From positions 185,690,001 to 185,754,000 of the forward strand of contig CM097883.1 in assembly GCA_044892505.1 (NCBI GenBank): a DNA stretch of 64,000 bases, in the 5' to 3' direction. Under the pieces are notes generated by a model. The model searched no databases. It worked only from the letters and a program-made list of their open reading frames with translations, and was not told the DNA's origin. This stretch comes from Schmidtea nova (lineage: Eukaryota). Below, piece after piece: positions 5,267 to 31,103 of the stretch (positions are counted from its first letter, which is position 1; each line of letters begins with the position of its first letter). The translations under genes were made by a program, and so were the position numbers.

Positions 5267-6154
5267 TACAGGATAAACCAATAAGTTTTGTCCGGTGCTC
5301 ATACTCAGCTTTCCAATGCTGTAATGAGTGTATAGGTCTGCAACTTTGTGTGTCTATGCTATATATGTTGTAGATTTGTAAAATTAAAAAAAATTACTTA
5401 TTAATAATTGTTAACATTGCTATTAACTTTGATATGTCTTACATGGATTAACCACTTTTAATAAATTTCTTGTTTGACTGAAATACCTTTTGTTTTCATT
5501 AGAATACGTTGATTAAAAATGAATTTCGCACGATATGATATCCGTAAGTGAATCTACTACAATTGGAAACGTGGATAAGTGCTTTCCTAGATTGCAAATG
5601 AAATAAATTTTACACTGGGGAAGGGCACAACAAATGAGCGCACTTGTCAACGCTGAGTTGCAAACTTCAAGGAAGGAAACTGTGATGTTGAAGACAAAGA
5701 GCGATGTGGAAGGCCCTCTCTTGATATCAACGACAAAATTCTAGCTCTTTTGGAGGAGCACAACAGTACTGCGGAAATGAGCGTGGAGCTTGGAGTTGGT
5801 CAGCAGACAATTCAAAATGATCTGCTTGCAATGGGCATGCGTTACCTGTGCAACCACTGGGTCCCACACAAGTTGTCCGAGCAACAAATGGCCAACCGTG
5901 AGAAAATATAAAACGAGCTGCTGTGCAAGTATGCTGCTAATGACTTCCTCAGTCAGCTCATTACAATGGACGAAGTCCGAATCTATTAGAACAACGACAG
6001 AACCTATCACCCCTGTTCATGGAGAGGAGCAGATGATGCCCCTGGCGTGGAAAATCGCCGCACACTCTCACCCAGGAAACATTCCTTCTTTTGAGACTGT
6101 AAAGGTGTGGTTATGATGGATAATCTGCTGCAAGGTGTTACAATTACTGCCGAT
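5267..6154 (+). mobile_element. Mariner transposon, 5' part (interrupted by the giant LTR element)
   Basis: TA at 5265-66 then a 31-bp TIR (tacaggataaaccaataagttttgtccggtg). Decayed transposase: TCQR*VANFKEGNCDVEDKERCGRP...WVPHKLS...LITMDE...GVTITAD. Confidence 0.9.
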
Positions 6155-9100: not shown

Positions 9101-10330
9101 TAAGAAATCCGTAAAGTAAAATAATTTACCGGACGGAGGACTAAGTAAATCTGATCCAACAATGCCGCATAAACAGAAAAGATTTTTTTATTAAAGCCCA
9201 ATAAAACTCATAATTTTGATTGGAAAATCCAACAAAACTCATAATTGTGAAATTATTTTATTCAAAATCAAATAGTCTAAGATAATTGTGAAATTGTTTT
9301 ATTCAGGATCAAATAGTTCATTAGCATGATTAAAAAATCAAATAGTCCAACTGCATGGCTTCTTGTAAAGATAAGACGGTACCAAACTGTCCATAAATCG
9401 TTCTCTGCATATGAGATGATAATAGAAATACAAATCGTTGGAATAAATTTCGACACATTGGGTCATGATCTCCAATCTTCGATGCCCAGAGTTTGTAGAG
9501 GGTGATCTTGCGGTGAAAAGTAACAAAATTTACCTAAAAAGATAAATCAAAAAATAGAATATCTCCTTCAAAATGAATATTACCGTTTTTTTTGTTCGGG
9601 AAATTTCCTATTGAACTCTGATATAATTGCTATTATACTCCGGATCTCTAAAATGGCTAATTGAGAAAAATTTTATAAAAAACCCGAACTTACCGTTAAG
9701 ACCACATCGGGATTTTTGTTTCTTGTAAATGGATATATATATGTATATATGAGTATATATACATTAATTGTATTATATATATGTATATTTGAATTATATT
9801 CGTTTTAAATATATTTATTAACAGACTTAAACAAGGAGTTTAAGATTTGTTAATTTAGTAATAAACTGGCCAAATGAAGAATTAAATTCAAACTTTTCGA
9901 TGCATAATTAAGATTCATTCTTAAAAAATTGTATTATTTATTATTTATCCTAAAATTACAATATTAGAAAAATTTAATGTTTATTAGTGTTTTCGAATGT
10001 TCGGAATAATTTATTTGTATTTATAATTATGTAAAATATTTATGTAAATTTCTGATAAAATTTGTATTGAAAGCTTATAGGTAAATCATATAAGAAGGGA
10101 CAAAATGGGCATTAAACCTTCTATCGGTAGCCCTTGGACCCAGGAGATATTCGGTCAATCATAGTTTCGTATTGACGACGCTCACTGATTGCGAATACAC
10201 ACCCACTTGTTACAGTACCAACGTTACATAGTGACGGGTAACAAGATGGTAATTTCAATGTTTTATGTGTTGAGTTGTTGATGAGAGCCATAGAAACGTC
10301 AAGGTCATATTGACGGTCAACAACCCACCA
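6155..10330 (+). repeat. 5' LTR (4176 bp)
   Basis: Starts tgttgggcc and ends aacccacca. Near-identical to 27012-31103 and followed by the PBS. Confidence 0.97.
8261..8515. repeat. 85-bp AT-rich tandem repeat inside the LTR (3 units; 2 units at 29118-29287 in the 3' LTR)
   Basis: Unit starts taaaaatgtatattataaaaattagaaa at 8261, 8346 and 8431, versus 29118 and 29203. Confidence 0.9.
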
Positions 10331-10340
10331 TATAAAAATT

Positions 10341-10358
10341 TGGGGGCTCAGCCGGGAT
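10341..10358 (+). promoter_or_regulatory. Primer-binding site complementary to a tRNA-Pro 3' end
   Basis: tgggggctcagccgggat, 10 nt downstream of the 5' LTR. Compare the canonical tRNA-Pro PBS TGGGGGCTCGTCCGGGAT. Confidence 0.88.
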
Positions 10359-11691: not shown

Positions 11692-12870
11692 ATTATCATT
11701 TTAGTTATTATTACTAGTAGTACNNNNNNNNNNNNNNNNNNNNNNNNNNNNNNNNNNNNNNNNNNNNNNNNNNNNNNNNNNNNNNNNNNNNNNNNNNNNN
11801 NNNNNNNNNNNNNNNNNNNNNNNNNNNNNNNNNNNNNNNNNNNNNNNNNNNNNNNNNCATGAGTGTTACTGTTGATATCATTATTATTACTAGCGATATT
11901 GGTGTTATGTTGGTTGATTGAGAATGACTGAGGTATGACCCCTGTAATTTTATTTTGTTGGCAAAGAAGGACATGGAAAGTATCGGGTCTAAATGAAATA
12001 ACAACGAAAATGGAGCAATACGTGAATTGTTTGTTTCAATTGATATAATTTAATAAGTTTGGGGTTTGAATGATGGAAAAGATGGATTGTTGAAGTCAGA
12101 ATGATGCATGGTGATATTGGAATGTTGATCGCGACTCAATTCGGGAATCGAAATCGGGAATAACTCTAAAATCTTATGAAATCATAAAATGATATCTAGC
12201 AACGACTTAAAAAACAAATATAATGATATAGAACCAAACGAGAAAACGTGAGACTTAACGTAAATACGAAAATTTTGAGATGCACAAAATTAGGAACCTA
12301 GTAAAAGGAGATGTTATACGACCATAAGATATGGAATAGAGTTCACGCGAATCACTTAGAGAATAAATATTCGAATACACAAAAATTGATTTCAGTAAGC
12401 GGAGAATTACCGAAAATTTGCGAGTACTGTAAAAAAAAATATAATTATCTCAAAATTGATAAAAAGTGTAAAAATCATGAAAAAATTGTGTAAATAAATG
12501 TTTAATTATTTTTTATGTAGAAAATATTAGTATATTCAAAAAATATAAAAATCATAAAAATTATGTACATAATGGCTGATTATTTTATTTATATTATTTT
12601 ATTCGAAAAATATCGAATATAGACGAATGGAGAAAATTAAAATATATAAAAATGTAAAAAATATAAAAATATAAAAATATATGTATAAAAATGGCTGAAT
12701 ATTCTGTTAGTAGTAGTTTTGAAAAAATACAAAAATATATAAAAAATTATAAAAATTTGTGTATAAAGATATTGAAGTTTTTATTATTTATTTTCGTTCA
12801 AATTTTAATAAATGGTTGACTCATGTTGATTCAAAAAGTTGTAAAAAATTAGTCATCATGAATATTTTAG

Positions 12871-13353
12871 ATGCAATCGATTGAGCATATTTTACTACGA
12901 ATCGAGTCGTTTTTCGATTTTGAAAAGAACCCATTGCAGGTGTTGAGCGAGAAACTCGAACGAGTAAACGGAATAAAAGATGAATTATTGTTGAATCCTA
13001 GACCACAACCTAAGAACCTAATAGTGATTGCAGGAATTGTGGTAACAACAAACGATATTTCGTTAGAAACGGTTTATAAATATCAACGATTGCGACTGAA
13101 TAATCCGAATTTTAATCTAAAAATACAAGAATGGATTGGTAAAATCGATAAAATCATGGACAAGCTAGAGAGATCGATAAATCAACAGATCGATTCGTTC
13201 GAAAGATGTTATATTTGTCGACAAAAAGAAGCGAACATTTTATTCATGCCATGTGGGCATTTGTGTTATTGCCAGCCGTGCTCTAGAGAAATAAAGAGAT
13301 GCGTAATCTGCAAACAGACAATTGATGACAAAATCGTCGTATTTTGTTCGTAA
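12871..13353 (+). CDS. 160-aa protein with C-terminal IAP/MDM-type C3HC4 RING (putative E3 ligase)
   Basis: CYICRQKEANILFMPCGHLCYCQPCSREIKRCVICKQTIDDKIVVFCS* has the IAP-type RING spacing and terminus. ttttag immediately precedes the ATG. Confidence 0.88.
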   Translation: MQSIEHILLRIESFFDFEKNPLQVLSEKLERVNGIKDELLLNPRPQPKNLIVIAGIVVTTNDISLETVYKYQRLRLNNPNFNLKIQEWIGKIDKIMDKLERSINQQIDSFERCYICRQKEANILFMPCGHLCYCQPCSREIKRCVICKQTIDDKIVVFCS

Positions 13354-13790
13354 CGAATGTCGTTCGAAATAAATGTTCTAGCCGGGTTGAACTTCGTTGA
13401 TCATCCAGTACTCTAAACCGTTGTAAAAATTAAATAAACACAGAACACTAGGTAATTAATGACTGAGAATCGTGTAAAAAACATAACAAGTAACGGCTAA
13501 TGCCGAAAAATCAAACATTAGGAAAATGGGAATTTGTGACAAAGTTACTTTTGTTTTCTTTTTGAATTTTCTTTATTATTATTATTATAAATCCTCCTCA
13601 TCATTATTATATTGATACAAATTTCATTACTATAAGTCTTCCTCATTACTATTATTATATTGATTATCTATATTATATCGACCATTAGGACGAGCAATAA
13701 GTAGCGTAATAAAAATTGATTTTATAAGGAGAATCTTCTGAAATAGAGCGATAAATGAGTGTCTGAGTAGGAAACGGGAAAATAGTACAC

Positions 13791-13859
13791 AAATTCATAA
13801 CTGAGCTATCAAAAGATAGTACGCCAAATTCTAACTGAGCTATCAAAAGATAGTACGTC
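13791..13859. repeat. 35-bp tandem duplication, each unit with a ctatc-aaaa-gatag hairpin
   Basis: aaattcataactgagctatcaaaagatagtacgcc followed by aaattctaactgagctatcaaaagatagtacgtc. Confidence 0.85.
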
Positions 13860-14372
13860 AATATTTTTGTTGTTAAAAATTAGCAGACAACAAACGGGGA
13901 AAAAACTTGATCACCCTGAGGAAAGAGAGTAGAATAGGATATCCATCGCATATGTTGGCGAAATTTCGTTTGTGACTGATCATCACAAATTGCGAAACGA
14001 GTTAACGCGATTATTTTACGATTTTGAATTAGGTGAAAGGGTAACCCGTAATGTTCGTCTTATACACCAGTTTACCAAGGCATGATTGGTACACTGAGGT
14101 AGAAGACAGTAACATGAATAAAGAGAAAGTTGCTGAGAAAATTAGATGCAGATTTTAGAAAGTCGAAAGAGTAAAAAGTGAATTTCGATGATAATAGTAG
14201 ATGATAGTATAACGAGAAAAGATTCTACCATGGTAGTTAAGGAATAAATTCGTAATTGAGAAGTAGTAGAACAATTTGAGAAAAACAGTCAGCAACAGCG
14301 AATTTATTTAAAAATTTGAGAATAGGGAAACGAGTGATTGAATAGCATAAAGAGAACAATTGAAGACGGCGG

Positions 14373-14650
14373 AGATAATTGAGAAACTTTGAGAGTCCAT
14401 TAAGAGACTTTGAGAGTCCAGATAATTGAGAAACTTTGAGAGTTCAGGAAGAGACTTTGAGAGTCCAGTAAGAGACTTTGAGAGTCCAGTAAGAGACTTT
14501 GAGAGTCCAGATAATTGAGAGACTTTGAGAGTCCAGGTAATTTAGAGACTTTGAGAGTCCAGATAATTGAGCGCTCTGGGAGAGACTTTGAGAGTCCAGA
14601 TAATTGAGAAACTTTGAGAGTTCATGTATGTGAGAGACTCTGAGAGTCCA
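14373..14650. repeat. Minisatellite: 11 copies of core ga(g/a)actttgagagt(c/t)ca with short variable linkers
   Basis: Counted directly. Linkers include gtaa, gataatt and ggtaattta. Lies in the non-coding leader of the 1035-aa ORF. Confidence 0.9.
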
Positions 14651-15409
14651 ATGTTTGTGAATATTGTTGAGAAATTTAGGAAAACGTTTGAGAGATAGAA
14701 TTAAATAAAACTGCGCAGTTATAATTTCGTTATGACAGAGAGAAACGTTGAACGAGAATACTTAAGGTGTAGTAATATAAACCGTTAACAAGAGCAGATA
14801 AAAGATATCGAGAAATACTTAGGAAATAAAATAATGGCCATGAATAGATAACGAACAAGACATTTTTTCCTCGAATGCCGAGATGAGTATGATTATACTG
14901 TTATTATAGTATTAGTATTGTTATTATTATTGTTATTATTATTATTATTATCAGGGTATAGATAATTGATACGACTATATAGACAATTATTACGAGATAT
15001 AGATAATTTAAAATCTGAGCTCAGAGTAGAAGGGGGGTAAATAGCGTCGATGAAGAAGCGATTTTTTATTTAGATTGTCCAACAGATCAAAGCCAAGCCA
15101 AGAGATAGTCAAATCAATCAGTTATTGAAGAGGTATATATAGAAGAAAAGAAGAAAAAGAAGTCTAATTGAAAAGGAAAGAAGTAAAAGAAAATAAATCA
15201 AAGAAGATCCAATTGAAGATAAAAGAGAGATCAGCAATCGATATTAAACGCAAATCGATAATATTACCAAACCAACGAAGTTCATAAAGTCGAAAGGTAG
15301 AGTCAAATCTCTAAAGAAACGACGAAAGGAAATTACAAAGAAGCAAAGCTGATAAATAAAGAAGTAAAATCCACAATATTAGAAGTTTGTAGCCGATTTT
15401 CAGAAAGAA

Positions 15410-18400
15410 ATGGAGAATCAGAAAGTTACCAGTGTAAACTCGGAAGATAATTTATTAGAAGAAGAGCAGAAAATAACCAGTCCAAACGTAGAAGATAATT
15501 TACAGGAAGAAGAAAAAGAAGTAGTAACAATGAAAATGCAACTACAACAGAATATCGAAGGAAAAGTAAATGAAATGATAACCGAATTATCAGACGTTGA
15601 AATTGAAAGAAATGGAAATGTATATGAATTTTCAGTAAAAGATATGGAGGGAGAAGAAAAGAAGAAGTTTGTGGAGAAATATAACCGACAAAGAAGAGAA
15701 AGAAGAAGCAATGATGATACATGTAGCATGGACGAGAAATGGGATGAATCTACGACAATCAAATTAGAAGAAGTGGCACAAAGATTGTTAAACATTACCA
15801 TAGAAGAAATGACGAAAATGAATCAGAAGTCGGAAGAAAAAAGGAAATCAGCGAAGCTCGAAAGATCGAAACAAACAGAGACGTCAAAGACCGAACGATT
15901 AATCAGTAACCTAAGCAAGAGTGCAGGAAATCAATGTGAAACAACAACTGAATTACTAAAATGGGTTATAAAAAATAGTGCAAATATATCAAACATGAGA
16001 TTGATAGTGAGAGAAATCGAGAAATGCAGACGTTTATGCCCTTGGTATTCAACACAATTTGATGACATCATGAGAAAATGGAAACAACTGGAACAAACAA
16101 ACGATGATCCACAGATGTGCAGATTGAAAATTCAATTTCCGAATCTAGAAGAAATAAAGATGAATGTATCATTAACAACAAAGATCAAAGAGATAAAAGA
16201 GAGATTACCATTTAACTTACCATTTCACGTGAAATATGATGGAGAATCGCTGGATGATGATATAGAAATCGGTGTAACCCCGATACAAATCGAAACAAGT
16301 AATAAATTAACTGTTGATAAAATTGCAGGAAGCGAGTTGACCAGAAAAGCGAGAGGTGAAGATAATCCCGAAACAACGATAATTGCAATGATGAAAACTC
16401 CAGCTGGACCAACACTTACAATTAACATCGAGGTTAATGGTGTGAAAGTTGACGCGATGATAGATACTGGCGCAAATATATCAGCAATAGATATCGATAT
16501 GATACCAGAAATGTTACGGTTATGCATCGAGAAAACATCGGTAGACGTAATAACATGCAGCAAAGAATCTGTCAATATCGTTGGAAAGATATGGACGGAC
16601 ATCGAATACAAAAATGTGAAAATATCAACTTATTTGACAGTAATAAAACAACTAGGTGCACCATGCATTATTGGAACAGACTTAATACCAAAACTGTTAA
16701 AAGGATCTGTAATTGATTTGAATACGATGAAGTTGGAACACCTAATTGAAGAGAATTGCACAAGAGAAACAATGATAGAACAATCAAATCCAGAAACAAC
16801 CAGAAAAGGACAAGTATATATGTTTCGTGAGAATAAAAATGACGATTGGCTACATCGTATATTAACTACGAGCAGAAAAGTAAATCAGTCAACAACAATA
16901 TCTGAACAACCTAAGATAGTTGACGATGTAAAAATGGAGCACCGCAAAAAGATGGAATTGATCATTGAGATTACCAAAGAAATTATGCCAGAATGGTCAA
17001 AAAGTAAAGATCTATTTGAAATATTAGGAGGAGTAAGCCTGATGGTTGAGGAATATGCCAAAGGAAATGAAACGACAGAAGCGATGAATACCATAAAAGA
17101 AAGATTACCAATATTATTTACAATTGCCAGTTTTAAAGATGAGATACCGTTATACCACGCAATAAAAAGTGGGAATGAACAGAGAATGTTTGAAATCATA
17201 AAACTCATGGAAAAGTGTAAACAACATACCAACACGAAAAATTGGAAAGATCAAACACCCTTGATGATAGCAATTGAAAAAGGAGGATCCAAGAAACTCA
17301 TAGCAGAACTGATGAGAACCGGATCAAGTTTTAAAGAAAGAGATGATAAAAATGAAACGGTGTTATCATATGCAGTGCAAGCAAATAACCATCAAATAAT
17401 CAAATATATTATGACAAATGCTACAGAAGAAGATATTGAAGTACTCAGTTCAGATCCAAATCCATTAGTAAATGCAGTAAACAAAGATGCGGACGAAACA
17501 ACAGCCAAAATGATTAAATGGTTACATCCAGAGACGCACGAAGGAGTGATAAATGTCAATGACAGATTTGAAGACGGTGAAAATATGATAATGAAAAGAG
17601 CCATGAAAAGAAAATGGAAAATGTACAAAACGATTAAAGCATTGCTGCAAAGACCTGATTTTAGATTTACGAACAACAAAAAAGAAAAAGAAAGAATTAG
17701 ATCTAAAAGACATGAATTATATCAGCAAGTCATCATATGGAAGGAAAATATAAAAGAAAGCAGAATTCACCGAAGTTGGAACAACGCCAAAGATGAGATA
17801 ACCAAGAGAGCAAATATAAAAGCCGAAGCAGATGAAATAGCTAAAAGATATGAGGAAATAATAAAATTAATAAATGTCGAGGACGACATTTTAAACGGAA
17901 CCGAGGGTGGTTCCGATGATCACAATAAGCCTGACGATGAAGATGAAGAAAATGATAACAACAAAACAAAGAAAGATGACAATGAAAGTATCAACAGAAA
18001 CAATGACAAAGACGAGAAAGATGATGGAAAAAGCAACAAAGATGAAAATGGGAACAAAAGTGATGAACCCAAGCAAGAAACTTCAAATTATGAGAAACGA
18101 ACAGCATGTCTACATAAAACTCGAATAAAAGACATAATATTACTGATATTGATGCTGTCAGCATTGAAAGGAACGGAAGCTGATGACAAGAGAAAACCAG
18201 TACAAGTATTAATACAAGGAGCAGATAATGAAGAAGCATGTTGGAGTAGCGTAAAATTGCAAATTAAAGGAGATAATCCAGTCAAATGTCAACGAGCAGA
18301 AGGAGGAGAAATCCGAATAAATGGATTAAAACGAGAAACGAAATATAAAATCTGTGTTTACAAAAAGAAAGCAGCACAAGAAATGTTTAGAACACTCGTA

Positions 18401-18517
18401 TGCCAGATAGTTGCACATAATGGTTCAAAAGTCACCCAAGAAGACATAAAAGTCATATTAACCGACGAGCCAGATGAGAACATCAGAATGTCGTCGAAAC
18501 GCAAGTTGTCAGAGTAA
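15410..18517 (+). CDS. 1035-aa polyprotein: charged/coiled N-terminus, ubiquitin-like domain, retropepsin aspartic protease, ankyrin repeats, acidic linker, hydrophobic segment, FN3-like C-terminus
   Basis: Protease IEVNGVKVDAMIDTGANIS...CIIGTDLI (DTG at 16463-71). Ankyrin-like IPLYHAIKSG, TPLMIAIEKG, TVLSYAVQAN, NPLVNAVN (~17138-17600). Ubl-like RLKIQFPNLEEIKMNVSLTTKIKEIKERL...YDGESLDDD (~16118-16300, tentative). FN3-like IRINGLKRETKYKICV (tentative). Confidence 0.85.
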   Translation: MENQKVTSVNSEDNLLEEEQKITSPNVEDNLQEEEKEVVTMKMQLQQNIEGKVNEMITELSDVEIERNGNVYEFSVKDMEGEEKKKFVEKYNRQRRERRSNDDTCSMDEKWDESTTIKLEEVAQRLLNITIEEMTKMNQKSEEKRKSAKLERSKQTETSKTERLISNLSKSAGNQCETTTELLKWVIKNSANISNMRLIVREIEKCRRLCPWYSTQFDDIMRKWKQLEQTNDDPQMCRLKIQFPNLEEIKMNVSLTTKIKEIKERLPFNLPFHVKYDGESLDDDIEIGVTPIQIETSNKLTVDKIAGSELTRKARGEDNPETTIIAMMKTPAGPTLTINIEVNGVKVDAMIDTGANISAIDIDMIPEMLRLCIEKTSVDVITCSKESVNIVGKIWTDIEYKNVKISTYLTVIKQLGAPCIIGTDLIPKLLKGSVIDLNTMKLEHLIEENCTRETMIEQSNPETTRKGQVYMFRENKNDDWLHRILTTSRKVNQSTTISEQPKIVDDVKMEHRKKMELIIEITKEIMPEWSKSKDLFEILGGVSLMVEEYAKGNETTEAMNTIKERLPILFTIASFKDEIPLYHAIKSGNEQRMFEIIKLMEKCKQHTNTKNWKDQTPLMIAIEKGGSKKLIAELMRTGSSFKERDDKNETVLSYAVQANNHQIIKYIMTNATEEDIEVLSSDPNPLVNAVNKDADETTAKMIKWLHPETHEGVINVNDRFEDGENMIMKRAMKRKWKMYKTIKALLQRPDFRFTNNKKEKERIRSKRHELYQQVIIWKENIKESRIHRSWNNAKDEITKRANIKAEADEIAKRYEEIIKLINVEDDILNGTEGGSDDHNKPDDEDEENDNNKTKKDDNESINRNNDKDEKDDGKSNKDENGNKSDEPKQETSNYEKRTACLHKTRIKDIILLILMLSALKGTEADDKRKPVQVLIQGADNEEACWSSVKLQIKGDNPVKCQRAEGGEIRINGLKRETKYKICVYKKKAAQEMFRTLVCQIVAHNGSKVTQEDIKVILTDEPDENIRMSSKRKLSE

Positions 18518-18675
18518 CCAGTGGAAGGAACAGTGTATATAGTGTATAAAATTATATTGTATTATAAAAGTAGAATATTTTTTTGTATAATAAAAATTTA
18601 AAAAAAAAAATCCAAAAAATGAATACCTCAAAACTGGGAAAAACAAATGATAATATTGTGTAATTATTGACAGAA

Positions 18676-19311
18676 ATGAATCCGAACAACGAGAATCAAA
18701 GTTATCAAACATCAGTTCCAACGTTCAATGAACCATCAAATCAAACTCAGTTTCCAGAAGATACCAATATACGAGAAAGAGAAGGGTCACTGCAAACCCC
18801 AGTAATCGAAAATGAAACGCAAAATCCAACAATTGACAATAGAAACCTGATATACCAAGTCGAAATTCCACTATTTGATGAAACCATGAACCCAATTCAA
18901 ACGACATTCGTATTAAATCAACAACCAACAAATAGCCAGACTCAATCAATATCAGCTCCGATGGTTTATCAGCAGACAATGACGCAAGAGTTATCATGGA
19001 AAACGCAATGTGAATTATTAAGCAGGATGTTGAATCAAGCCTACGCACAATGGAAAAACGAACAAGCTTTGTTAACAGAAAGTGTAAACAGAAATTTATT
19101 ATATCTTGCTAAAATGGAAGAACAACAACAAATGATAATCCAAAAGGACCAGAGAATTGAATGGTTAACAAGACATACGGAGTGGCAAACAAACGAAATC
19201 AGAAGATTGAATGAGACGCGAGAAGAAGTCAGAGCATGGTATAACTGGTTAGACAATTTTCCAGAACCGGTTCGAGAGCCTGACTCGACGGGAAGGGATG
19301 AACTATTATAA
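18676..19311 (+). CDS. ~211-aa protein of unknown function (Q/N/P/T-rich N-terminus, coiled-coil C-terminus)
   Basis: Open frame with the same codon style as its neighbours. The first ATG (18676) is preceded by ttgacag-aa. Confidence 0.7.
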   Translation: MNPNNENQSYQTSVPTFNEPSNQTQFPEDTNIREREGSLQTPVIENETQNPTIDNRNLIYQVEIPLFDETMNPIQTTFVLNQQPTNSQTQSISAPMVYQQTMTQELSWKTQCELLSRMLNQAYAQWKNEQALLTESVNRNLLYLAKMEEQQQMIIQKDQRIEWLTRHTEWQTNEIRRLNETREEVRAWYNWLDNFPEPVREPDSTGRDELL

Positions 19312-19405
19312 AAATTTAAAACCAGTGTAAATAAAATGTAAAAATGTGAATATGAATAAAACTTGGTATAAAGAGCAAAACGAAAAAATTATAAATTATT
19401 TTAGA

Positions 19406-20809
19406 ATGCAGACCGAGAATCAGCAGAAACAAGAGGAATTGATCGAACTATATCAGATACTACAGAGACAACGGATAGAACCAACAGAATTTCAAGAAAG
19501 ATTTAAATGTAAAGTATGTAGAAATTTATTGATAGAACCCAGACAAACTGAATGTGGATGTCGAATATGCACTAATTGCGTGATGAAAATAATACGAACA
19601 AAACAGAAGCTATGTCCTGAATGTGGTGAAGCAATAATAGACCAATTTGACCAAACCAGACCAGATATCGCAATGAATCGGGAAATAATGAACGCAGCAA
19701 CAACCTGTCCAAATAAACCATGTGCATGGAGTGGGCCAATAAAATGGATCGCCAAACACCTTTATAATTGTGATGATACGAAAGCCAAATGCAAGTGGTG
19801 TGAAGAAGAAATTTTGAAGAAAGTCAAAGACAGTCATGAGGAAATGTGTGAACAACGACAGGAAATCTGTGAGTTTTGCAACGAAACAGACGCTTGGATA
19901 GTGTTAAAAGATGAGCATTGGAATATAGAAGAAGGGCAAGTATGTGACGAGTATGAAGGTAATTGTAATCAATGTGGAATGGCAGAAAACGTGAAGCTAA
20001 AAGAACATTGGGAAATATGCGAAAAGAAGCCTACTGCATGTCCACTAAAATTATTCAATTGCAAAGCGAGATTACCAAAATAGGAAATACAAAAGCATGT
20101 GGATGAAAATAGTGTAAATCATTTGAGAACCATTGTGGAAGCTATTGGAGCAACCGCGCTGGTAATTGGAGAAGCCAACACAGAAATAAAATCACACAAA
20201 ATCATGATACAAGAGATGTTGGATACGAGAGGAAATTTTGAAAGAATAAGAGAACAAATGATCCAAAAAATGATACTATTAGACCAGAAAATAGCAGAAA
20301 TATCAACAATCCAACAAAGATTGGAAAGCATATTGCCAACAATGGAAGAACTACCCGTCACACCCTACTATTGGAAAATCACAGAATTTACAGAGAAATT
20401 GAGACTAGCAAGAGAAGGAGGTCAACGTGTATGGACAAGTCCACCTTGTCACAGTTGGAAACATGGTTACAAGCTTAGATTCAAAGTATATCTAACGGGA
20501 GACGGACTAGGAGCCGGAACTCATTTATCTGTATATTTTCAAATATGCAAAGGAGATTATGATGATTGGTTAGAATGGCCCTACGATTGCGATATAACTA
20601 TGATGATCGGAACAAAGGAAAACAACGTTCGGGAAGTATTCAGACCAAACTTGAGGAAGGTAGAAGCAGCTTATAAGAAGCCGATCGAAAACTACAACGT
20701 AGCTGTAGGAAATCCACGTTTTATTGCACTACATTATTTAACCATAGAACAATCATTATATTTGGTAAATAATATCCTGTATCTGATTATCGAAGTAAGA
20801 AAGCCGTAG
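19406..20809 (+). CDS. TRAF-family protein (RING, TRAF zinc fingers, coiled coil, MATH) interrupted by one in-frame TAG at 20081-20083
   Basis: RING CKVCRNLLIEPRQTECGCRICTNC...CPEC; zinc finger CPNKPCAWSGPIKWIAKHLYNC; MATH YYWKITEF...SPP...GYKLRFKVYLTGDGLGAGTHLSVYFQICKGDYDDWLEWP. Track ORFs 19346-20083 and 20099-20809 are in the same frame (LPK*EIQKHVDENSVNHL). The start could alternatively be the ATG at 19352. Confidence 0.9.
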
Positions 20810-21041
20810 TGAAGATGGAAAAAGTGTAAATATGTCTGTATTATAATGAAGTATCTGTATCATAATGTACAAAATAAAATTAGAAAATCACAATAAACAT
20901 AAAAATCAAAAAGAAATATAAAAATGAGAAAAACCAAAAAAAAAAAAAAAATCAAATATAAAAATGAGAAAAATCAAAATTTTGTAAATATAGAAAACAA
21001 AAAATTGTGAAAAATATAATGGAGAAAATATTGTAGATACA

Positions 21042-22211
21042 ATGACTGAAAGGAAGATCGTGAAAATACGAGAAGATGACAGATCATTCAAATGTTTATG
21101 CGAATTAATGAAAAGAGATAAAGAAAAGATGTCAAAACCAATTACCTCAGAAATGATCCATTGTCGATTTACACGAACAATATCGAATGTTCCTAAGGAA
21201 AGGAGTTATGGAAAATTCAAAATTATTGATGAAACGTTAAAAAACGAGAACCGAAGATATATAACCTTTTTACAACAAGACAACTTCTATGAAAAGCAAT
21301 ACAGAAAATTTGCCAAAGATGGTTTGTATTTTGCAGGGACAATTGAGAAACCCGATAAAGTAGCCTGTGTATTTTGCAGAATTGAAATAGAACCTTGGAG
21401 AATTAACGATGATCCACTAACAGAACATAGAAAACTTTCACCCACATGCCAGTTTGTGTTAAAGGCTTGCGAAAAACCAAGAAAATCAGCAACAATGAAC
21501 AATAATGAAGAAGAAAAACCCAAAATAGTAACGATAACTTCAACAGGTCCAGCAAAGATACGATTCATAGAAGTTGACCCAAAATACACGATTAATGGGA
21601 GAACTAACACTTTTGTAGATAAAAAGATGGGTATCAGATTAGCAATAGAAGGTTTTTATGCAATAAATGAATCAACCGCTGAATGTTCAGAGTGTGGAAT
21701 ACAATATCAATTACCAAAAATGGAAGGAGAATACCTGAAACACAACGAATATTGTAAATATAGAGAAGAATTATATGAAGACGAAGAACCGATCAATTAT
21801 AAAAACCCAGAGATGCCTGTTAATGAATTATTAGTAGACAAGATATTAGATGAACCACGAACTCAAAAGGCAATGGAATGCACCGGCAAAAGCGAAATAT
21901 TTATGAAAGAAGTCATCAGAGAGAGATTGAGAAGAAATGGAGAAACATTTGGATCAACCCTAGAATTCTTTAAAGCTATAATACAGTTCACCAGAAAATC
22001 CCAAGTTGTCAACCCAGAATCATGTATCAAGAAAATTATATTAAATAAACACCCCTGTTCAATCTGTTGGATAAAGAAAGTGGAAGTTATTCATTTACCG
22101 TGTGGACATCTGTTAGCATGTGAAAATTGTAGCAATAAATTGAGATTGTGCTCAATGTGCAGGAAACCGATCGACAAACGGATCAAGGGATTCCGTTATG
22201 CCGATCAATAA
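21042..22211 (+). CDS. Inhibitor-of-apoptosis (IAP)-like protein: BIR, degenerate BIR, UBA-like segment, RING
   Basis: Canonical CX2CX16HX6C BIR (CVFC...DDPLTEHRKLSPTC); a second BIR-like unit (GRTNTF...LAIEGFY...CSEC...KHNEYC); a UBA-like segment (KAMECTG...VIRERLRRNGETF); RING CSICWIKKVEVIHLPCGHLLACENC...CSMCRKPI. Confidence 0.92.
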   Translation: MTERKIVKIREDDRSFKCLCELMKRDKEKMSKPITSEMIHCRFTRTISNVPKERSYGKFKIIDETLKNENRRYITFLQQDNFYEKQYRKFAKDGLYFAGTIEKPDKVACVFCRIEIEPWRINDDPLTEHRKLSPTCQFVLKACEKPRKSATMNNNEEEKPKIVTITSTGPAKIRFIEVDPKYTINGRTNTFVDKKMGIRLAIEGFYAINESTAECSECGIQYQLPKMEGEYLKHNEYCKYREELYEDEEPINYKNPEMPVNELLVDKILDEPRTQKAMECTGKSEIFMKEVIRERLRRNGETFGSTLEFFKAIIQFTRKSQVVNPESCIKKIILNKHPCSICWIKKVEVIHLPCGHLLACENCSNKLRLCSMCRKPIDKRIKGFRYADQ

Positions 22212-22345
22212 TCCAATCAAGCAACCTTGTAAATAAATTGTAAAGATTTTAACTTCAATTAATGTATACAAGTATTATTTAATAAGCATGAGCAACAAAA
22301 AATGTATAAACAAAAGGAAATTACCCATGTTATTATTATTTCAGA

Positions 22346-23893
22346 ATGAATATACAACAATTGATAGACATCCTAGATCAGGAGATGGCAAAAAGACAAG
22401 AGCAACTAGATCAAATGAGAAGCTATGAACAAAGAATGGAAGCCATCCAAGAGAACGTTAAAATGATTGAAAAACGAACCCAAGAGATCAATAAAATAAA
22501 AGAGGAAAATGAGGAACTACGAAAGATAATAAATGACAAGGCGCATATCGAAGCTGAACTAGGAAATTATAAACGAGAGTACAGGGAAATGGAGAGAAAA
22601 CTCGAGCACGAACAACGAAAGTCGGTACCGTTGAAAAACCAAGCGAGATTAAGAAAAGATGAGCTCGAAACTTATAAAAGAGATACCGAAACAAGATATG
22701 ACAACTCCATAAGATTCTATCAGCAGCAACTCGAAAGTGAAAGGAACAGATATGAAGCCATGAAAAAGAAATGGGAAAAGTGTCGAGATGAAGCATTTGC
22801 TTTGAGAGGACAACCTCAAAAGAAGCTTAAAGTCAGAACAAGAAACATTGAGCCTGAAAGCGAACAAGAAAAGATCATTAGAAAAGTTAAAGCAGAGGCT
22901 AGGAAATGGAAACAAGAACACCAAGATTTATTGGAAATGGCTCGACACAGAAAAACGCTACAGGAAGAATTATTAAGACGGAGAGACGTTCAAATCGAAG
23001 CTCTGAAAGAGGAATGTCATTGGTATGCAGACATACGTCATGAGGAAACGGAGAAACTCAGAAAAGAAACATTCCAGTTGAAAACGAGCGGACAATTCAG
23101 AGAACGAAGCATAAGGCATCAAATAAAGTGGCTAAAAGAACAAGCCAGAACATGGAAAAAGACCTGGAAAAGAACTCGAGACGAACTACGAGAATTCCCA
23201 AAGAAGCTGATGTCAATAAATGAAGCAGAATTGTGGGAGAATGCAGAAAAGCAAGAGATAGAAAACAAAGAATTAAGACGGCAAGTTCAATTAAAAACTG
23301 AATGGAATCAAAGGAGAATGAAATTTACCAGGAATCAAGAAGCTCGTATCAAATATCTGGAATTTGAAAATAGGCAATATGATCAACAGAAGAATATGGA
23401 TGATCAAAGTATTGAAGAACTGACAATAGAATTGACTATTGCAAACCGTGAAGTCAACGGATATCGAGGAACAAATACTCATAAAGATATTGTCATTCAA
23501 CACCAGCGACGGCAGATAGAAGAGACAAAGGCCGAATGTGAAAAAGCAATCCAGCAATCCCAAAAGGAAATTGAAATGGCTATCCAAAGTTTGGAAGAAA
23601 ACCGCCAAAACTATGAAAGAGAAATTGAAAGGCTGAGAAATATGGAAAATACGAGAGAGCTCGAGATAGAAAAGGAACAGCTGAGTGAAGAACTCGATTA
23701 TATGACATATTTGCTAGATGAAGAGATAGAAATCTCAAGAACTTTGCGAGAAAGAGTTCAGAGCCTACAAAATCAACCTCCAATAATTCTATGGCCACTA
23801 TATCCAACACCAATACAACCTGTACATTTGGAGCAAGAAAATCCTCAAATCGAAGATGAAGGGTTCGGAGAAATTGAAGAGACGTTTGTATGA
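22346..23893 (+). CDS. 515-aa long coiled-coil protein, function unknown
   Basis: Uninterrupted E/K/R/Q-rich heptad-like ORF with an acidic, Pro-rich tail; tttcag-a-ATG start context. Confidence 0.8.
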   Translation: MNIQQLIDILDQEMAKRQEQLDQMRSYEQRMEAIQENVKMIEKRTQEINKIKEENEELRKIINDKAHIEAELGNYKREYREMERKLEHEQRKSVPLKNQARLRKDELETYKRDTETRYDNSIRFYQQQLESERNRYEAMKKKWEKCRDEAFALRGQPQKKLKVRTRNIEPESEQEKIIRKVKAEARKWKQEHQDLLEMARHRKTLQEELLRRRDVQIEALKEECHWYADIRHEETEKLRKETFQLKTSGQFRERSIRHQIKWLKEQARTWKKTWKRTRDELREFPKKLMSINEAELWENAEKQEIENKELRRQVQLKTEWNQRRMKFTRNQEARIKYLEFENRQYDQQKNMDDQSIEELTIELTIANREVNGYRGTNTHKDIVIQHQRRQIEETKAECEKAIQQSQKEIEMAIQSLEENRQNYEREIERLRNMENTRELEIEKEQLSEELDYMTYLLDEEIEISRTLRERVQSLQNQPPIILWPLYPTPIQPVHLEQENPQIEDEGFGEIEETFV

Positions 23894-24192
23894 ATAATAA
23901 AAGTGAATGTAAAGTGTAAAAAGAAGTCGAAATGTAAAGTGTAAAAAGAAATTGAAATGTAGTGTAAAAAGAAAACGTTGTAAAGAAATGTAAAAAGAAA
24001 AAGTCGTAAAATATATCCAAAAAATTAAATAAAAAGCAGAAAAAATAAAAAAAAAAAAAAAATTCGATAAAAAATAGAAAAAATGAAAAACAAATAAAAA
24101 TTAGAAAATGATAAAAATAATAAAAATGATAAAAACAAAAACAAAATTAATAAAACTATAGAAAAGAGTTATGAAAATTCAAATTATAGAAA

Positions 24193-24768
24193 ATGAGACT
24201 ATTGAAGCAAAGATCAGAACCAGAACAACAGACGATATCAAAAGAAAGATTCAAAAAATGGAAGAGAGCAACAGAGCAATATTATCAAGACCAAATAGAT
24301 CAATTGAAGGAAGTAATGAGCAAAGATAGAAAATATATCGCACAAATGGAACAAAAGTGCGAGACGATGGAAATAATCAAGCGAGAAAATTATCTATTTC
24401 GCCAACAAAATGGTCTTACCCAAAAATATTGCGACAGACAGAAGCAAGAGATTGACAGACTCAAAAGGGAAATAAACAGTGAACAGAACACTGATAATAA
24501 AAGGAGAATTAAGATCGAGTCATTACAACGATCCTTGAAGAGCAAACAGAAAAAGATTATCAAAAGAGAAAAACAGATAATAAAGTTGAAAAGTGAAATC
24601 ATAGAAGCAAAGTTTGATACATTCAAAGCAAAGAAAGTTGTAGAAATCAAAACGGCAGAAAATTACGTCCTCAAAGAACAAAGGCGAAAAGAAGCAGACG
24701 AGATTGCAAAAATGGGTAACTGGAAGCCAGAGAGTCCGTTAAAGCTAAATGAAGAGACGAAAGAATAA
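24193..24768 (+). CDS. 191-aa basic coiled-coil protein, function unknown
   Basis: Open K/E/Q/R-rich ORF; attatag-aaa-ATG start context. Confidence 0.72.
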   Translation: MRLLKQRSEPEQQTISKERFKKWKRATEQYYQDQIDQLKEVMSKDRKYIAQMEQKCETMEIIKRENYLFRQQNGLTQKYCDRQKQEIDRLKREINSEQNTDNKRRIKIESLQRSLKSKQKKIIKREKQIIKLKSEIIEAKFDTFKAKKVVEIKTAENYVLKEQRRKEADEIAKMGNWKPESPLKLNEETKE

Positions 24769-24863
24769 AATATATCTAAACTCATGTAAATATCCCTGTA
24801 AAAATATAAAAGAGAAAATTTGACAAATCATTAAACAAATTTGAATCTATAAATCTATAGAAA

Positions 24864-25709
24864 ATGAGCAATCTAATGAGGATCACAACAACCATCATGA
24901 TATTTATGATTACAAACTGCCGAAGCGAAGAAGCATTGAGTCAATGTCAAGCAAGCCATCCATTTAGAAGGTCCGATAGCATCTGTGTAAGCTATCAAGA
25001 AATTTGTATCACCAGAAATGAGGAGTGTCAACAGATACAATTACAATGTCAACAATGTCCTAAATCCAGTGAAGATTCAATCACCATCCTTAAACAATTG
25101 AGAAATGAAACTCAACAATTAATCCAACTACAAATCTCCTTAACCAAAAGAAACAATCTTCAACTAAAGAAACAGCTCGAAAACCAATCATCTTTCAAAC
25201 AGTTGACTACCGAACTAAAGAAATTGAGCAAGTTAATAGAAAAATCTCTAAATAATAAAGATGAAGTTAACGAGGAAAGATCAAGTTTTACAGAGGAGTT
25301 AAATCAAAAACTAAAAACTCAACTTCATCAGACCGAGAGAATTATAAAGCAATTGGTTTTATCCGAAAAGCAAAAAGAGATTATCCCTAAACAAGGATCA
25401 ACAAACGAAGACGTCAGAGACCGAGAAGCAGCCATCACAGTCGTTCTACAGGGCATCAGTCTTTTCGCGGTCATAATGATCTTTAGCATTGTTGCATCAA
25501 TCGGATTAGAGAAAATGAAATTAGAGAAAGCGAAAATACAATTGAATACAATCAAACGAACCACACATGAAGACAACAACCCTTCAGAAAATTTTCTGCG
25601 ATCAATATTTGAAGATCCAGTTCAAGAACAGCCTAATCCTGAGACATCTACAACCTCGGTGCAGATGAATTACTTCTATAACAATAATACGATTCAATTC
25701 ACCTTTTGA
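24864..25709 (+). CDS. 281-aa predicted type I membrane protein (signal peptide, Cys-rich head, coiled coil, TM, tail with PVQE)
   Basis: Hydrophobic N-terminus (ITTTIMIFMITNCRS), six Cys in the head, L/Q/K heptads, TM AAITVVLQGISLFAVIMIFSIVASIGL, and a tail containing DPVQEQP (25617-25631). Confidence 0.8.
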   Translation: MSNLMRITTTIMIFMITNCRSEEALSQCQASHPFRRSDSICVSYQEICITRNEECQQIQLQCQQCPKSSEDSITILKQLRNETQQLIQLQISLTKRNNLQLKKQLENQSSFKQLTTELKKLSKLIEKSLNNKDEVNEERSSFTEELNQKLKTQLHQTERIIKQLVLSEKQKEIIPKQGSTNEDVRDREAAITVVLQGISLFAVIMIFSIVASIGLEKMKLEKAKIQLNTIKRTTHEDNNPSENFLRSIFEDPVQEQPNPETSTTSVQMNYFYNNNTIQFTF

Positions 25710-25888
25710 CAATTCATGTACTTTCTTCCATTCATTTAATCTATCTATCTATTTGTATTCTCATCTTGAACAATATTTCATCATCATTAAATCATAACCC
25801 TGTTTAAAACATCGTAACGCCCTTGTAAATAGCAAAAATTATTTATCATCATTATTCAATTTCTCTATTAGAAACACAAAAATCAACA

Positions 25889-26692
25889 ATGAAATCGTAC
25901 CGAGAAGTTTTTCTAATCGCCATGATCACAACAATTTATTGTCATCTCGAAGAAACCCAGAAATCAAGCCAATTAAACCCAAATCAACAATGTAATAAAG
26001 AACCATTTGAAATCTCTAACAACAAACAACTATCCGAAAAGATTGAGCAAGCCAAAATCGAAATTCAAAATACCCTTTTCAATCAAAATGATGAAATTTC
26101 AGGTCTAAAGAGAATAGCAAGGATAATATTAGCAGACTTAGCGATCAGAGATATATATGAGGATATTTTTGATAGTGATCGAGAAACCCGTGATGCAATA
26201 AAAAGTCTCACCAAAGAATTAAAAATGAATATAGGCAAGTTAATCGATCAGCTAACGATAAATTCATCAAGTCCGAAATGTCTGAAACAAATCCAGCAAA
26301 TTCATCATAACCTGTCCCAGCAGATTTCCGAAGTAGGAAACCAAACGGCACAACAACTGAGAAAGGCTTATTTCGAAAACCTGGCATTTAGGAATAAAAT
26401 CCACGATCACATAAACGAGATATCGAAACCGGATAACAATCAAGACAGAGACAAGTGCAGAGCATCCCTCCTATCATCCGAACGAATTCTCGATATCTGC
26501 CTGATCATCCTTAACTTTTTCCTAATAATCGGAATTTGTGGTATAATATGGTTAGGCTTGACCACCACAAGAATGATGAACAACATGACCTCCGAACAAT
26601 CCGGAAGCGAAGATGACAAGAAACGGTTGATCAATACCGAGTCATTCAAACTATCCCAGCCGAAGACCCAACAAATTCAATTCAAAAGTTAA
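25889..26692 (+). CDS. 267-aa predicted type I membrane protein (signal peptide, coiled coil, TM, short tail)
   Basis: N-terminus VFLIAMITTIYC, heptad-rich ectodomain, TM ILDICLIILNFFLIIGICGIIWLGL, tail ending QIQFKS. Confidence 0.8.
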   Translation: MKSYREVFLIAMITTIYCHLEETQKSSQLNPNQQCNKEPFEISNNKQLSEKIEQAKIEIQNTLFNQNDEISGLKRIARIILADLAIRDIYEDIFDSDRETRDAIKSLTKELKMNIGKLIDQLTINSSSPKCLKQIQQIHHNLSQQISEVGNQTAQQLRKAYFENLAFRNKIHDHINEISKPDNNQDRDKCRASLLSSERILDICLIILNFFLIIGICGIIWLGLTTTRMMNNMTSEQSGSEDDKKRLINTESFKLSQPKTQQIQFKS

Positions 26693-27011: not shown

Positions 27012-30000
27012 TGTTGGGCCAAAACGCAATTTGTTTTAATAAAGCGATAACCCCATAGGTAGAGAACGCGCAAGATTCCATTTTTAACCTTAGCTGCCAT
27101 TAAAAATCTAACAATTACGTGGAAAACACCAAAAGGTGAAGTGAAATCAAAACACATCAACCGGTAGAGTACGCGCTAGCTGCGAGTTTGTAAGTCTTTT
27201 CACTGAAATCTCGAGAAAAATTAAAAGCAGAACGTTTGGAAGTTAGAATAGGCGGAAAACCCATTGAAAGTGCCCATAAAGAACAGAATTTTGTCATAAA
27301 ATCTTCAGTACAGAAAAATTAACAAAATTTTAGAAGAAAATTGTAAATTTATCACAAAATTTCACATTTAACAGTAGAGAGAATTGATATGGATCGAAAT
27401 ATCATAAATTAAATCAAATCGAACAAATTTCGATTCAAACATAAAAATTTTGAATTAAAATAAATTATTTATAGTTTATAAAAAATTATTATACAAAAAT
27501 ATGGAATTAATTTTCGGAAAATCATTAGAATTAATTTAGAAAAAATTAAGAGAAAATTCTAGAACAATTTGTTTTATTGCACTAGTGAAGATAGGGTAAA
27601 ATTGATGGTATATATACCGCCATCAAAATGGCAGAATTCAGAATTTGTGAAAAAATTTTCGTTTTGTTTAACTAAGAATTTGTACCATTTTCAACAGAAA
27701 TTGTGGGAGAAAAATTTCTTAATTGTTTCTGAAAATTTTACAGAGTTTTTGGCAGAATTTTTGTGAAGATTTCGTGGAGAAAATTCTTTAGAGAGATTAT
27801 CAGAATTTTTGAATTTCTGTGAAAGAGGAAGAAGACACTGATTCCCGGAAGACCAAAATAAAACGAACATTTTATAAAAGAAATTTTCGTGTGAATTTGA
27901 AGATTTTCCGGAGTTTGCGAATCACTGAAAGAAATGTAAGGATTAATTGTTTTTTTTTAACTTGTTTTTGAGGGGTTTGGGATCGTCGATCATCATGCCT
28001 GACGATCATCCCATTCCTCGCACTTTATTAATTGATATGGTATTTGTTATTTGTTAATTTTAATTTAATGCTAACACCTTATTATGATATTATTAAAATA
28101 AAATATTTGATTCATATTTTATTCGATTTAGTTTTAAATTTTTTCTTGTTGTTATTACTATCATCACAAATTCCCAAATTAATTAAAATTTCATATGAGC
28201 ATTTATCTAAATACGAAAAAATAAAATTTTTTTTTCTCCCTTATCTTCTGACGATCCGTCCAGCCTTGGTTGTGCGGATCTGTTAGTAGCCTGGGTGGAT
28301 CGTTGTCTGATTAGTAATCGGCCAGCCCATATTTCCACTTTAAGGTGAGGCTCATACATCCATAATCTCGTCATCCCAACTGGGGAATCGTGGTATGGCC
28401 AAGAGCAAGGATTTGTTATACTAATGATTTTTATTATAATAGAGTAGCATATTTTTATTATCTACATAAGCAATTTCGTAATACAACATAAAATTTTCTA
28501 ACTCATGTCTTGAAATCTAAAATAGGAAATATTACTGATTAAAAAATCGACTCGTACTCACCTTCACCTTCACACTCTCAACGACGATCATCTTATGAGA
28601 AAACGCAAGAAAAATGGATGCTAATGATGAAAAGAAATCGTTCGAATTAATGCTCAAATCCAATGGAATGGTAATGAAACCGAAATTAACCTTACTCGAT
28701 GTCGAAAAATATTCGTTGAAAAATTTATAACTTATTTTTATTTTATTTTTATTTAGCATATAAAGACTTTTTAGATTTTGGATTTCGAAATTTATGGATA
28801 AAAATGTATTATTATTTCATTTTGGTCAAGAATAAAAATTTGCTTTTTATTATACTGCAAAAATTTTATAATGAAAAAATTGTAAACCAAAAATTTTCCT
28901 AATATTGTTATGATATAAAAGATTTTGTCATTTTATAAAATTCCTAAGAATTTATAAATCAAAACTTATATTGAAATCCATAAAAATTTTAAATCGAAAA
29001 TATTAGTATTATATTGAAAATTTTATCATCTTAAAAAAATCCAAAATTTCAAAATTTTATAGGAAAATTTTTATTATATATATATATATATATACTTAAA
29101 ATATAAAAATTCGAACCTAAAAATGTATATTATAAAAATTAGAAATTTTATTATTATATTATTTTCATAAAATTATAAATTTAAAATTTATAAAAAGTAT
29201 TATAAAAATGTATATTATAAAAATTAGAAATCTTATTATTATTTAATTTTCATAAGATTATAAATTTAAAATTTGTAAAAAGTATTATAAAAATTATTAT
29301 TATTATTTTGATATAAAAATTATTATTATTATTTTAATTTAAAAAATATTTTATATGATTTATATATAGTATAATATAACTACCCCACGATACCTCAAAA
29401 TCATAACGCATCTCTATTTGCAAAAAATTATATCCATTTCATTCAATAACATTTTCCATACTAATACACACGCAACATCTATTTAAAATACAATATACAC
29501 ACATACACAGTATCATTCAATAACATTCAACAATCACATACACACCAACAAACCATACCAAAAATTCCACCCAGACATGCTAGTTAGCATCGTACGTCCA
29601 ATCACACGCACAAACACTCAATTGTTCCCGTCACCTATCCACAAATCGCACGCAAACACGATAATAATAAAGTCATACAAATCTAAAACAATATTACACA
29701 CCATCATTCTATCTCACTCTACTCAACATACCATCGCATTCAACTCATACAATCACCCTTAATATCATTTAATTGCATTTTTTTTGTGGCGAATCAACAA
29801 GTTCTGCCAAAACCTTTTCATAACAATCTATGGAAATCATACAAAAATCTACCATTATACGGCGAGGGTACATAAGAAATCCGTAAAGTAAAATAATTTA
29901 ACGGACGGAGGACTAAGTAAATCTGATCCAACAATGCCGCATAAACAAAAAAGATTTTTTTATTAAAGCCCAATAAAACTCATAATTTTGATTGGAAAAT

Positions 30001-31103
30001 CCAACAAAACTCATAATTGTGAAATTATTTTATTCAAAATCAAATAGTCTAAGATAATTGTGAAATTGTTTTATTCAGGATCAAATAGTTCATTAGCATG
30101 ATTAAAAAATCAAATAGTCCAACTGCATGGCTTCTTGTAAAGATAAGACGGTACCAAACTGTCCATAAATCGTTCTCTGCATATGAGATGATAATAGAAA
30201 TACAAATCGTTGGAATAAATTTCGACACATTGGGTCATGATCTCCAATCTTCGATGCCCAGAGTTTGTAGAGGGTGATCTTGCGGTGAAAAGTAACAAAA
30301 TTTACCTGAAAAGATAAATCAAAAAATAGAATATCTCCTTCAAAATGAATATTACCGTTTTTTTTTGTTCGGGAAATTTCCTATTGAACTCTGATATAAT
30401 TGCTATTATACTCCGGATCTCTAAAATGGCTAATTGAGAAAAATTTTATAAAAAACCCGAACTTACCGTTAAGACCACATCGGGATTTTTGTTTCTTGTA
30501 AATGGATATATATATGTATATATGAGTATATATACATTAATTGTATTATATATATGTATATTTGAATTATATTCGTTTTAAATATATTTATTAACAGACT
30601 TAAACAAGGAGTTTAAGATTTGTTAATTTAGTAATAAACTGGCCAAATGAAGAATTAAATTCAAACTTTTCGATGCATAATTAAGATTCATTCTTAAAAA
30701 ATTGTATTATTTATTATTTATCCTAAAATTACAATATTAGAAAAATTTAATGTTTATTAGTGTTTTCGAATGTTCGGAATAATTTATTTGTATTTATAAT
30801 TATGTAAAATAATTATGTAAATTTCTGATAAAATTTGTATTGAAAGCTTATAGGTAAATCATATAAGAAGGGACAAAATGGGCATTAAACCTTCTATCGG
30901 TAGCCCTTGGACCCAGGAGATATTCGGTCAATCATAGTTTCGTATTGACGACGCTCACTGATTGCGAATACACACCCACTTGTTACAGTACCAACGTTAC
31001 ATAGTGACGGGTAACAAGATGGTAATTTCAATGTTTTATGTGTTGAGTTGTTGATGAGAGCCATAGAAACGTCAAGGTCATATTGACGGTCAACAACCCA
31101 CCA
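27012..31103 (+). repeat. 3' LTR (4092 bp)
   Basis: Same termini as the 5' LTR. Differs by roughly 20 substitutions/small indels (counted by eye) and one fewer 85-bp tandem unit. Followed by TSD cgat. Confidence 0.97.

Follow-up and report, generated by a model that had tools for sequence, protein, structure and literature searches.

The stretch of DNA analysed here, referred to as the window, comprises 64,000 nt from Schmidtea nova (GCA_044892505.1, contig CM097883.1, 185,690,001-185,754,000, forward strand). It contains, on the plus strand at 6155-31103, an element bounded by long terminal repeats (LTRs) that measures 24.9 kb in total and 16.7 kb between the repeats, and that was inserted into a broken, presumably mariner-like sequence. 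The interior of the element is made up of nine plus-strand open reading frames (ORFs), which encode in order a RING protein, a protease with ankyrin repeats, an orphan, a TRAF-like protein, a BIR-RING protein, a coiled-coil-like protein and three orphans (Table 1). The last two, of 281 and 267 aa, are predicted from their hydrophobic segments to be membrane proteins. Every gene is laid out as a cassette in which a candidate 3' splice acceptor is followed by the ATG, the ORF, the stop and an AATAAA-type signal (9/9 genes). Seven of the eight gaps between ORFs measure 94-299 nt, and ATGs are present in all of them. The subject of this work is how such an array may be expressed.

Table 1. Features of the LTR element (positions in the window).
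Feature	Position	Strand	Remarks
Left target-site duplication, cgat	6151..6154	+	repeated at 31104-31107 (4 bp)
5' LTR, ~4.2 kb, TG...CA	6155..10330	+	98.8% and 98.4% identity to 3' LTR in two blocks
GTAAGT donor of the preliminary description	6333..6338	+	in 6/16 LTRs; 0 genomic junction matches
Primer-binding-site-like sequence	10341..10358	+	10 nt past LTR; in 13/14 sequences scanned, window included
Donor candidate GAG/GTATGA, GT at 11933	11930..11938	+	between primer site and first acceptor
RING ORF, 160 aa, acceptor 12870	12863..13353	+	AATAAA 14 and 75 nt past stop
Strong, longer T-rich acceptor	15058..15073	+	followed by 336 nt free of ATG up to ORF2
ORF2, 1,035 aa, aspartic protease and ankyrin repeats, acceptor 15403	15396..18517	+	Pfam
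211-aa ORF, family-less, acceptor 18673	18666..19311	+	Pfam; atlas search
TRAF-like gene (RING, zinc fingers, MATH), acceptor 19404	19397..20809	+	one in-frame stop, 20081-20083
BIR-RING (IAP-like) ORF, 389 aa, acceptor 21036	21029..22211	+	Pfam
515-aa charged, coiled-coil-like ORF, acceptor 22344	22337..23893	+	judged by composition
191-aa ORF, acceptor 24189	24182..24768	+	
281-aa ORF, acceptor 24860	24853..25709	+	hydrophobic N-terminus and late hydrophobic stretch; AG lost in 1/17 copies
267-aa ORF, acceptor 25871	25864..26692	+	hydrophobic N-terminus and late hydrophobic stretch
TGTAHATA motifs at 18534, 19326, 20825, 22228, 24785	18534..24792	+	14-16 nt past five stops, each followed by a second TGTA
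3' LTR, ~4.1 kb	27012..31103	+	pair with 5' LTR

Acceptor sites and 3' ends of the nine genes

A preliminary description of this DNA had placed a YAG motif shortly before the start of each gene, at distances of 0, 6, 2, 1, 5, 1, 3, 3 and 17 nt in gene order, and all nine are found as claimed. A YAG ending within 6 nt of the ATG, a cut-off set post hoc after the data had been seen, occurs at 8/9 starts versus 4-16% across six control sets. These include ATGs elsewhere in the element (58/369), in non-coding sequence (13/94) and in the LTR (2/57), as well as ATGs outside the element (74/654) and on the minus strand (159/1,077; binomial P 4e-6 or lower). The comparison with shuffled sequence that had been proposed as a check was also run on the 60 nt preceding each start, and the value of eight was attained in 0/5,000 shuffles (mono- or dinucleotide), indicating that such closeness is not common in controls.

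For the TRAF-like gene, the earlier choice of the second ATG (19406) is borne out by the observation that the frame opening at 19352 is broken in several copies that retain the 19406 start. With the mechanical first ATG (19352), the count is 7/9 (P <1e-4, 0/5,000 shuffles). The RING and MATH halves of this gene share one frame, with the stop at 20081-20083 as the sole interruption, and the region of this stop is read through in 6/9 other copies that hold the whole TRAF region. The MATH half, which was said to lack an acceptor and to belong to TRAF, does belong there, but a CAG is present 20 nt upstream of it, just past the limit that had been applied.

The acceptors have the shape TTNYAG, with T at -6 in 8/9 and at -5 in 7/9 sites versus 25% at 413 other YAGs (P 1e-4 and 1.4e-3). 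The strand, however, is A-rich, and the description of the sites as T-rich is generous for some of them. Conservation across copies, the other check that had been named, was determined in 17 other cargo-bearing copies, where the YAG is kept at 132/133 sites. This count excludes five copies that carry pol, in which the YAG of the first site is kept in a diverged context. The AG columns are monomorphic in 17/18 cases versus 71% of gap columns (P = 0.02), and changes beside the AG keep the consensus, with TAG replaced by CAG at 12870 in three copies and further changes of T to C. These comparisons of sequence support the view that the nine sites have the properties of functional 3' splice sites, and splicing at them is likely.

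AATAAA or ATTAAA lies within 90 nt of 9/9 stops versus a background of 33%, and two TGTA within 50 nt of 7/9 stops versus 2.6%. The longer motif TGTAHATA, which we take to be Pumilio-site-like, follows 5/9 stops versus a background of 1.1%, is present also past the pol stop of the partner element described below, and is kept at 71/72 copy-sites; these patterns were picked after inspection of the sequence. The idea that TGTA enhances polyadenylation in planarians generally was considered and rejected, given that the relevant passage of PMC5068929 reports UGUA to be absent ahead of the poly(A) signal. For this reason TGTAHATA is more likely a Pumilio-type or element-specific site, and it could be bound by a Pumilio-type protein. 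The region past each stop looks, by its motifs, like a 3' untranslated region. Two types of deletion, found in two copies each, remove the part from ORF3 to BIR and retain the block of stop, motif and acceptor that precedes the next ORF. These internal deletions were also considered as spliced copies, and this was rejected because their joints lie at short shared sequences or lack GT-AG ends. The preliminary description recognized the acceptors, but overlooked the matching 3'-end signals and the non-autonomous status of the element.

The pol-bearing partner and a tenth acceptor

No gag, reverse transcriptase (RT) or integrase was found by Pfam among the ORFs of the window element; no Pfam match to BCL2 was obtained in the element, and an Rfam scan of 6000-31200 gave 0 matches. 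The primer-binding-site-like sequence is presumably of the tRNA-Pro type. No purine-rich tract precedes the 3' LTR; a GC-rich motif is found there instead (26975-27011), as is also the case in the partner. The same layout is seen, where the region is present, in ten other copies of 94-97% identity, three of which are truncated at the 5' side. The LTRs of the window element measure 4.1-4.2 kb, and the leader motif has 1,673 genomic matches, with cargo and partner elements counted together.

One of eight further LTR pairs that were examined has the LTR start (93%), the primer site and the leader in common with the window element and encloses a different interior. This interior encodes, with frame breaks, gag, MATH, an env-like fusion protein, protease, RT, RNase H, integrase and ankyrin, in this order. 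ORF2 of the window aligns with the partner polyprotein in four pieces of 41-62% identity, and by this alignment it is a deleted form of that polyprotein, that is, a pol remnant. Given the shared LTR, primer site and leader, and the match of ORF2 to the polyprotein, the two elements form a pair, in which the window element is the non-autonomous member and bears the cargo. The pol-bearing copies have a disrupted RING ORF (ATG changed in 4/5, frame breaks) with its acceptor still in place, whereas the cargo element keeps the ORF itself; this suggests a division of labour between the two. Searches with single proteins gave no match for the BIR-RING ORF, and none at 0.9 in a protein atlas for the 211-aa ORF. 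The search with ORF2 was swamped by ankyrin proteins, with one match to an env-bearing gypsy polyprotein.

The list of acceptors in the preliminary description was incomplete, as it missed a tenth and stronger site at 15073. A similar acceptor is found 450-580 nt upstream of the gag ATG, with no ATG between, in 5/5 pol-bearing copies that include the region; five other stretches that were fetched do not contain it. The ATG-free runs after this gag-type acceptor have P values of 5e-3 and 9e-4, and the gag ATG itself has no adjacent YAG. The gag-pol of the partner may thus also be translated from spliced RNA, since a strong acceptor and 450-580 nt free of ATG precede gag. Tandem repeats of ~26 nt, variable in number among copies, occupy 14363-14650, downstream of the RING ORF and ahead of the gag-type acceptor.

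These observations bear on the possibility that the AGs are not spliced at all and represent a start-codon context or relics of gene capture, with translation achieved by leaky scanning or re-initiation. Genomic searches revealed no junction, and the invariance of the sites is weak evidence in copies this young (P = 0.02), both of which would suit such an explanation. The combination of a variable distance of 0-17 nt with a fixed T at -5/-6, on the other hand, fits a splice site and not a start context; the ATGs in every gap and the ATG-free runs after the gag-type acceptor speak in the same direction. Moreover, capture of mRNAs is not the source of the sites, because the genes are intronless and one of them is a pol remnant. 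Overall, we regard unspliced AGs as very unlikely.

Leaders, donors and the mode of expression

The donor at 6333-6338 that had been proposed for a shared leader is not conserved among LTRs and is found in no genomic junction. A weak donor at LTR+132 was rejected, given that it is lost at 74 places, many of them LTR pairs of elements that spread; all losses are point changes among the 20/74 matches read. Other candidates are found at 7490 (in part of the LTRs only), 11235 and 11623. The 9-mer around 11933 is invariant in 19/19 copies (14 cargo, 5 pol-bearing) within a region of 10.7% mismatch, a degree of invariance matched by 14/1,002 9-mers of the leader, and across the genome 1,673 copies of this site have the GT versus 8 without the G. 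It is a better candidate than 6333 and is probably the major donor. Retroviruses have their major donor in the same place, after the primer site and ahead of the first acceptor. Upstream of the 11933 donor, at 11640-11720, there is an ATT-type microsatellite. Repeats of A/T trinucleotides are found in tissue-specific planarian promoters according to an excerpt of PMC10558129, and by analogy an internal promoter near this microsatellite is possible.

The reading that we favour, and to which we give an even chance, is that each gene obtains its own mRNA by cis-splicing of the shared leader to one acceptor, with polyadenylation after that gene. A single long precursor would be transcribed from the element, and the leader ending at 11933 would be joined to one acceptor at a time, the same donor presumably serving all nine. 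The transcript would then end through the AATAAA site of the chosen gene, and unspliced RNA would be packaged and copied by the proteins of the partner. In favour of this reading, the 11933 donor is conserved in the cargo element and the partner alike, and according to part of PMC4558846 cis donors out-compete the spliced leader. The earlier proposal of one precursor resolved into monocistronic mRNAs is in line with the layout and the acceptors; its donor fails, and both of its modes, cis- and trans-splicing, are candidates.

Several observations weigh against the shared leader. No genomic copy of a junction between 11933 and an acceptor was found (0 matches), and the 8 copies without the donor G are due to point changes or small indels and not to splice joints. 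ATGs are present in the leader at -9 and -26 from the donor in all 13 sequences compared. The phase-0 AUG of the leader would be in frame at only 4/9 acceptors; at three others its frame is short, with a stop that overlaps the start, and at two it forms an overlapping frame of 27-33 codons. The arithmetic is unchanged if a spliced leader with a terminal ATG is taken instead. The leader would also need to bypass up to eight AATAAA signals and 14 kb, and the invariant run 11920-11939 could instead serve packaging or protein binding. Furthermore, the copies are young and related, so that the conservation counts overstate their independence (column test P = 0.02). Read data of unrecorded type from four runs over 24160-27440, which includes 3/9 acceptors, cover genes and gaps alike, with three runs deeper at the LTR start; among the 15 joints and 24 loose ends listed none is at an acceptor, and this gives no evidence either way.

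The window also holds, at 38184-38225, a putative spliced-leader sequence ending in ATG, which we take to be the planarian spliced leader; looking for this motif in the literature gave 0 matches. Flatworm spliced leaders end in ATG, as described in a passage of PMC12582326. The core of this sequence has 968 genomic matches, which continue past the ATG into many different mRNA-like starts. Of 25 distinct targets of the leader, 9 have their first ATG no more than 6 nt away and 15 no more than 17 nt away, irrespective of frame. The host, judged by these fusions, has the spliced-leader machinery, and it tolerates an out-of-frame leader AUG, because the targets carry near ATGs in any frame. The 38150-39720 region is a repeat that apparently captures the 5' ends of spliced-leader mRNAs: 29/30 loci that were read have the same upstream sequence, many have a common downstream repeat, and they diverge right after the leader ATG, where the window copy continues into what is presumably a PP2C-like start. 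Some copies are paired ~5 kb apart in the manner of LTRs. This repeat is a fossil library of trans-spliced genes.

An alternative is a spliced-leader operon, in which the host leader would be added at each acceptor once the precursor has been cut behind the preceding gene, either throughout or in a hybrid form where 11933 is used only for the first or the gag-type acceptor. Such an operon is possible rather than probable. The 968 matches show a host leader ending in ATG fused to many mRNA starts, the near ATGs of its targets (9/25 within 6 nt) indicate that its AUG is tolerated out of frame, and poly(A) signals follow all nine stops. The 94-299 nt of 7/8 gaps are below the 300-bp limit of flatworm operons given in a section of PMC12582326, which also describes cis-splicing as lowest at operon acceptors. 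In an excerpt of PMC8629364, the gaps of Macrostomum operons peak at ~100 bp. A precedent is provided by Cer1, a Gypsy element that takes SL1 on a spliced mRNA (PMC3315495, in part). Against the operon, no element exon start is found among the genomic leader fusions listed (100 of 153 for a broad pattern), which is weak evidence given one leader type and unknown sampling. Tighter patterns (7 and 20 matches, all of them) gave no element exon, and six near matches that were inspected were not similar to one. The model for nematode SL1 gave 0 matches, and its control also failed to register. In addition, the operon leaves the conserved upstream donor unpaired, and short gaps are expected for any mobile element. 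The term operon-like used in the preliminary description is thus appropriate for the spacing, and as a mechanism it is a candidate only. At its fullest, the tentative picture is that of a helper-dependent retrotransposon with a nine-gene operon, where the host spliced leader would yield monocistronic mRNAs for the TRAF, IAP, RING and membrane proteins, under Pumilio-type 3' control, and the partner would copy the element.

Finally, each gene could have its own small promoter, with the AG as the end of an outron or as a component of a start-site motif. For flatworm genes, outrons arising from internal promoters have been proposed (PMC12582326, in the passage on outrons), and each cassette persists in copies that spread after its neighbours had been deleted. 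However, the gaps of 94-95 nt are taken up by the 3' motifs of the upstream gene, seven short gaps lack a GT donor preceded by G, and an outron would still require the spliced leader. Separate promoters are for these reasons very unlikely.

Outside the element, host-gene exons with a LisH-like motif recognized by eye lie downstream at 32056-37400, and a small gypsy-like element, disrupted and bounded on either side by direct repeats, is found at 41167-44615 (minus strand), with DUF7047 and an RNase H-like match. A piece of DDE_1 transposase (Pfam) at 1700-2950 (minus strand) and a 216-nt inverted repeat pair of 95% identity at 35431-36032 are probably remains of DNA transposons.

Comparison with known systems

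Complex retroviruses and foamy-like elements join one leader to many acceptors, and the window element resembles them in having a donor past the primer site and an acceptor before each accessory ORF. It differs from complex retroviruses in the 3'-end signals after every ORF, versus their single site in the 3' LTR, in a gag that is apparently behind an acceptor, and in having the cargo on a separate, non-autonomous element. A shared leader has its closest working model in the adenovirus major late unit, which combines one leader, many acceptors and several poly(A) sites; adenovirus, however, is a DNA virus with regulators that it encodes itself, none of which was identified in the window element.

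The likeness to flatworm spliced-leader operons lies in genes on the same strand with short spacing, here 94-299 nt, and in a poly(A) signal ahead of each following acceptor. The operons described in parts of PMC12582326 and PMC8629364 are made of host genes, mostly two each and at most nine, whereas leader addition is here a candidate only. Cer1 of C. elegans carries a single SL site and lacks a gene array, according to the portion of PMC3315495 concerned.

The order gag-MATH-env-PR-RT-RH-IN-ankyrin published for the Burro polyprotein in the Burro section of PMC6431247 is the domain order of the partner. The window element is a Burro-like LTR retrotransposon, assigned by layout and domains and not by a sequence match to Burro1-4 or GYPSM1, none of which came up in the protein searches. 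Like these giant Ty3/gypsy elements of planarians, it has long LTRs, thousands of copies, and cargo with RING, MATH/TRAF, BIR and ankyrin domains related to apoptosis and ubiquitin (Pfam). It does not reach the size of Burro, with an internal part of up to 25 kb and a total above 30 kb. The single polyprotein from gag to ankyrin is absent from it and present, with frame breaks, in the LTR-sharing partner; unlike Burro, the window element has nine separate ORFs and no gag, env, RT or integrase. Expression of accessory ORFs is not treated in the Burro section of PMC6431247. In the literature searched, which did not extend to the 2026 Burro1 paper and the 2018 genome paper, no description was found of Burro splicing or of the expression of many separate genes.

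Burro elements of planarians carry anti-apoptotic genes, and one of them is reported to support regeneration (Lee et al. 2026, as cited in a passage of PMC13465017). The cassette of acceptor, ORF and 3' signal explains how genes can be gained and lost one at a time in an LTR element. Exact junctions are predicted, which can be checked in existing RNA-seq, and either outcome would be informative, giving nine alternative last exons or a transposon-borne operon. Burro elements with their cargo, splicing from a common leader and operons are all already known; what is new is a nine-cassette array on a helper-dependent LTR element.

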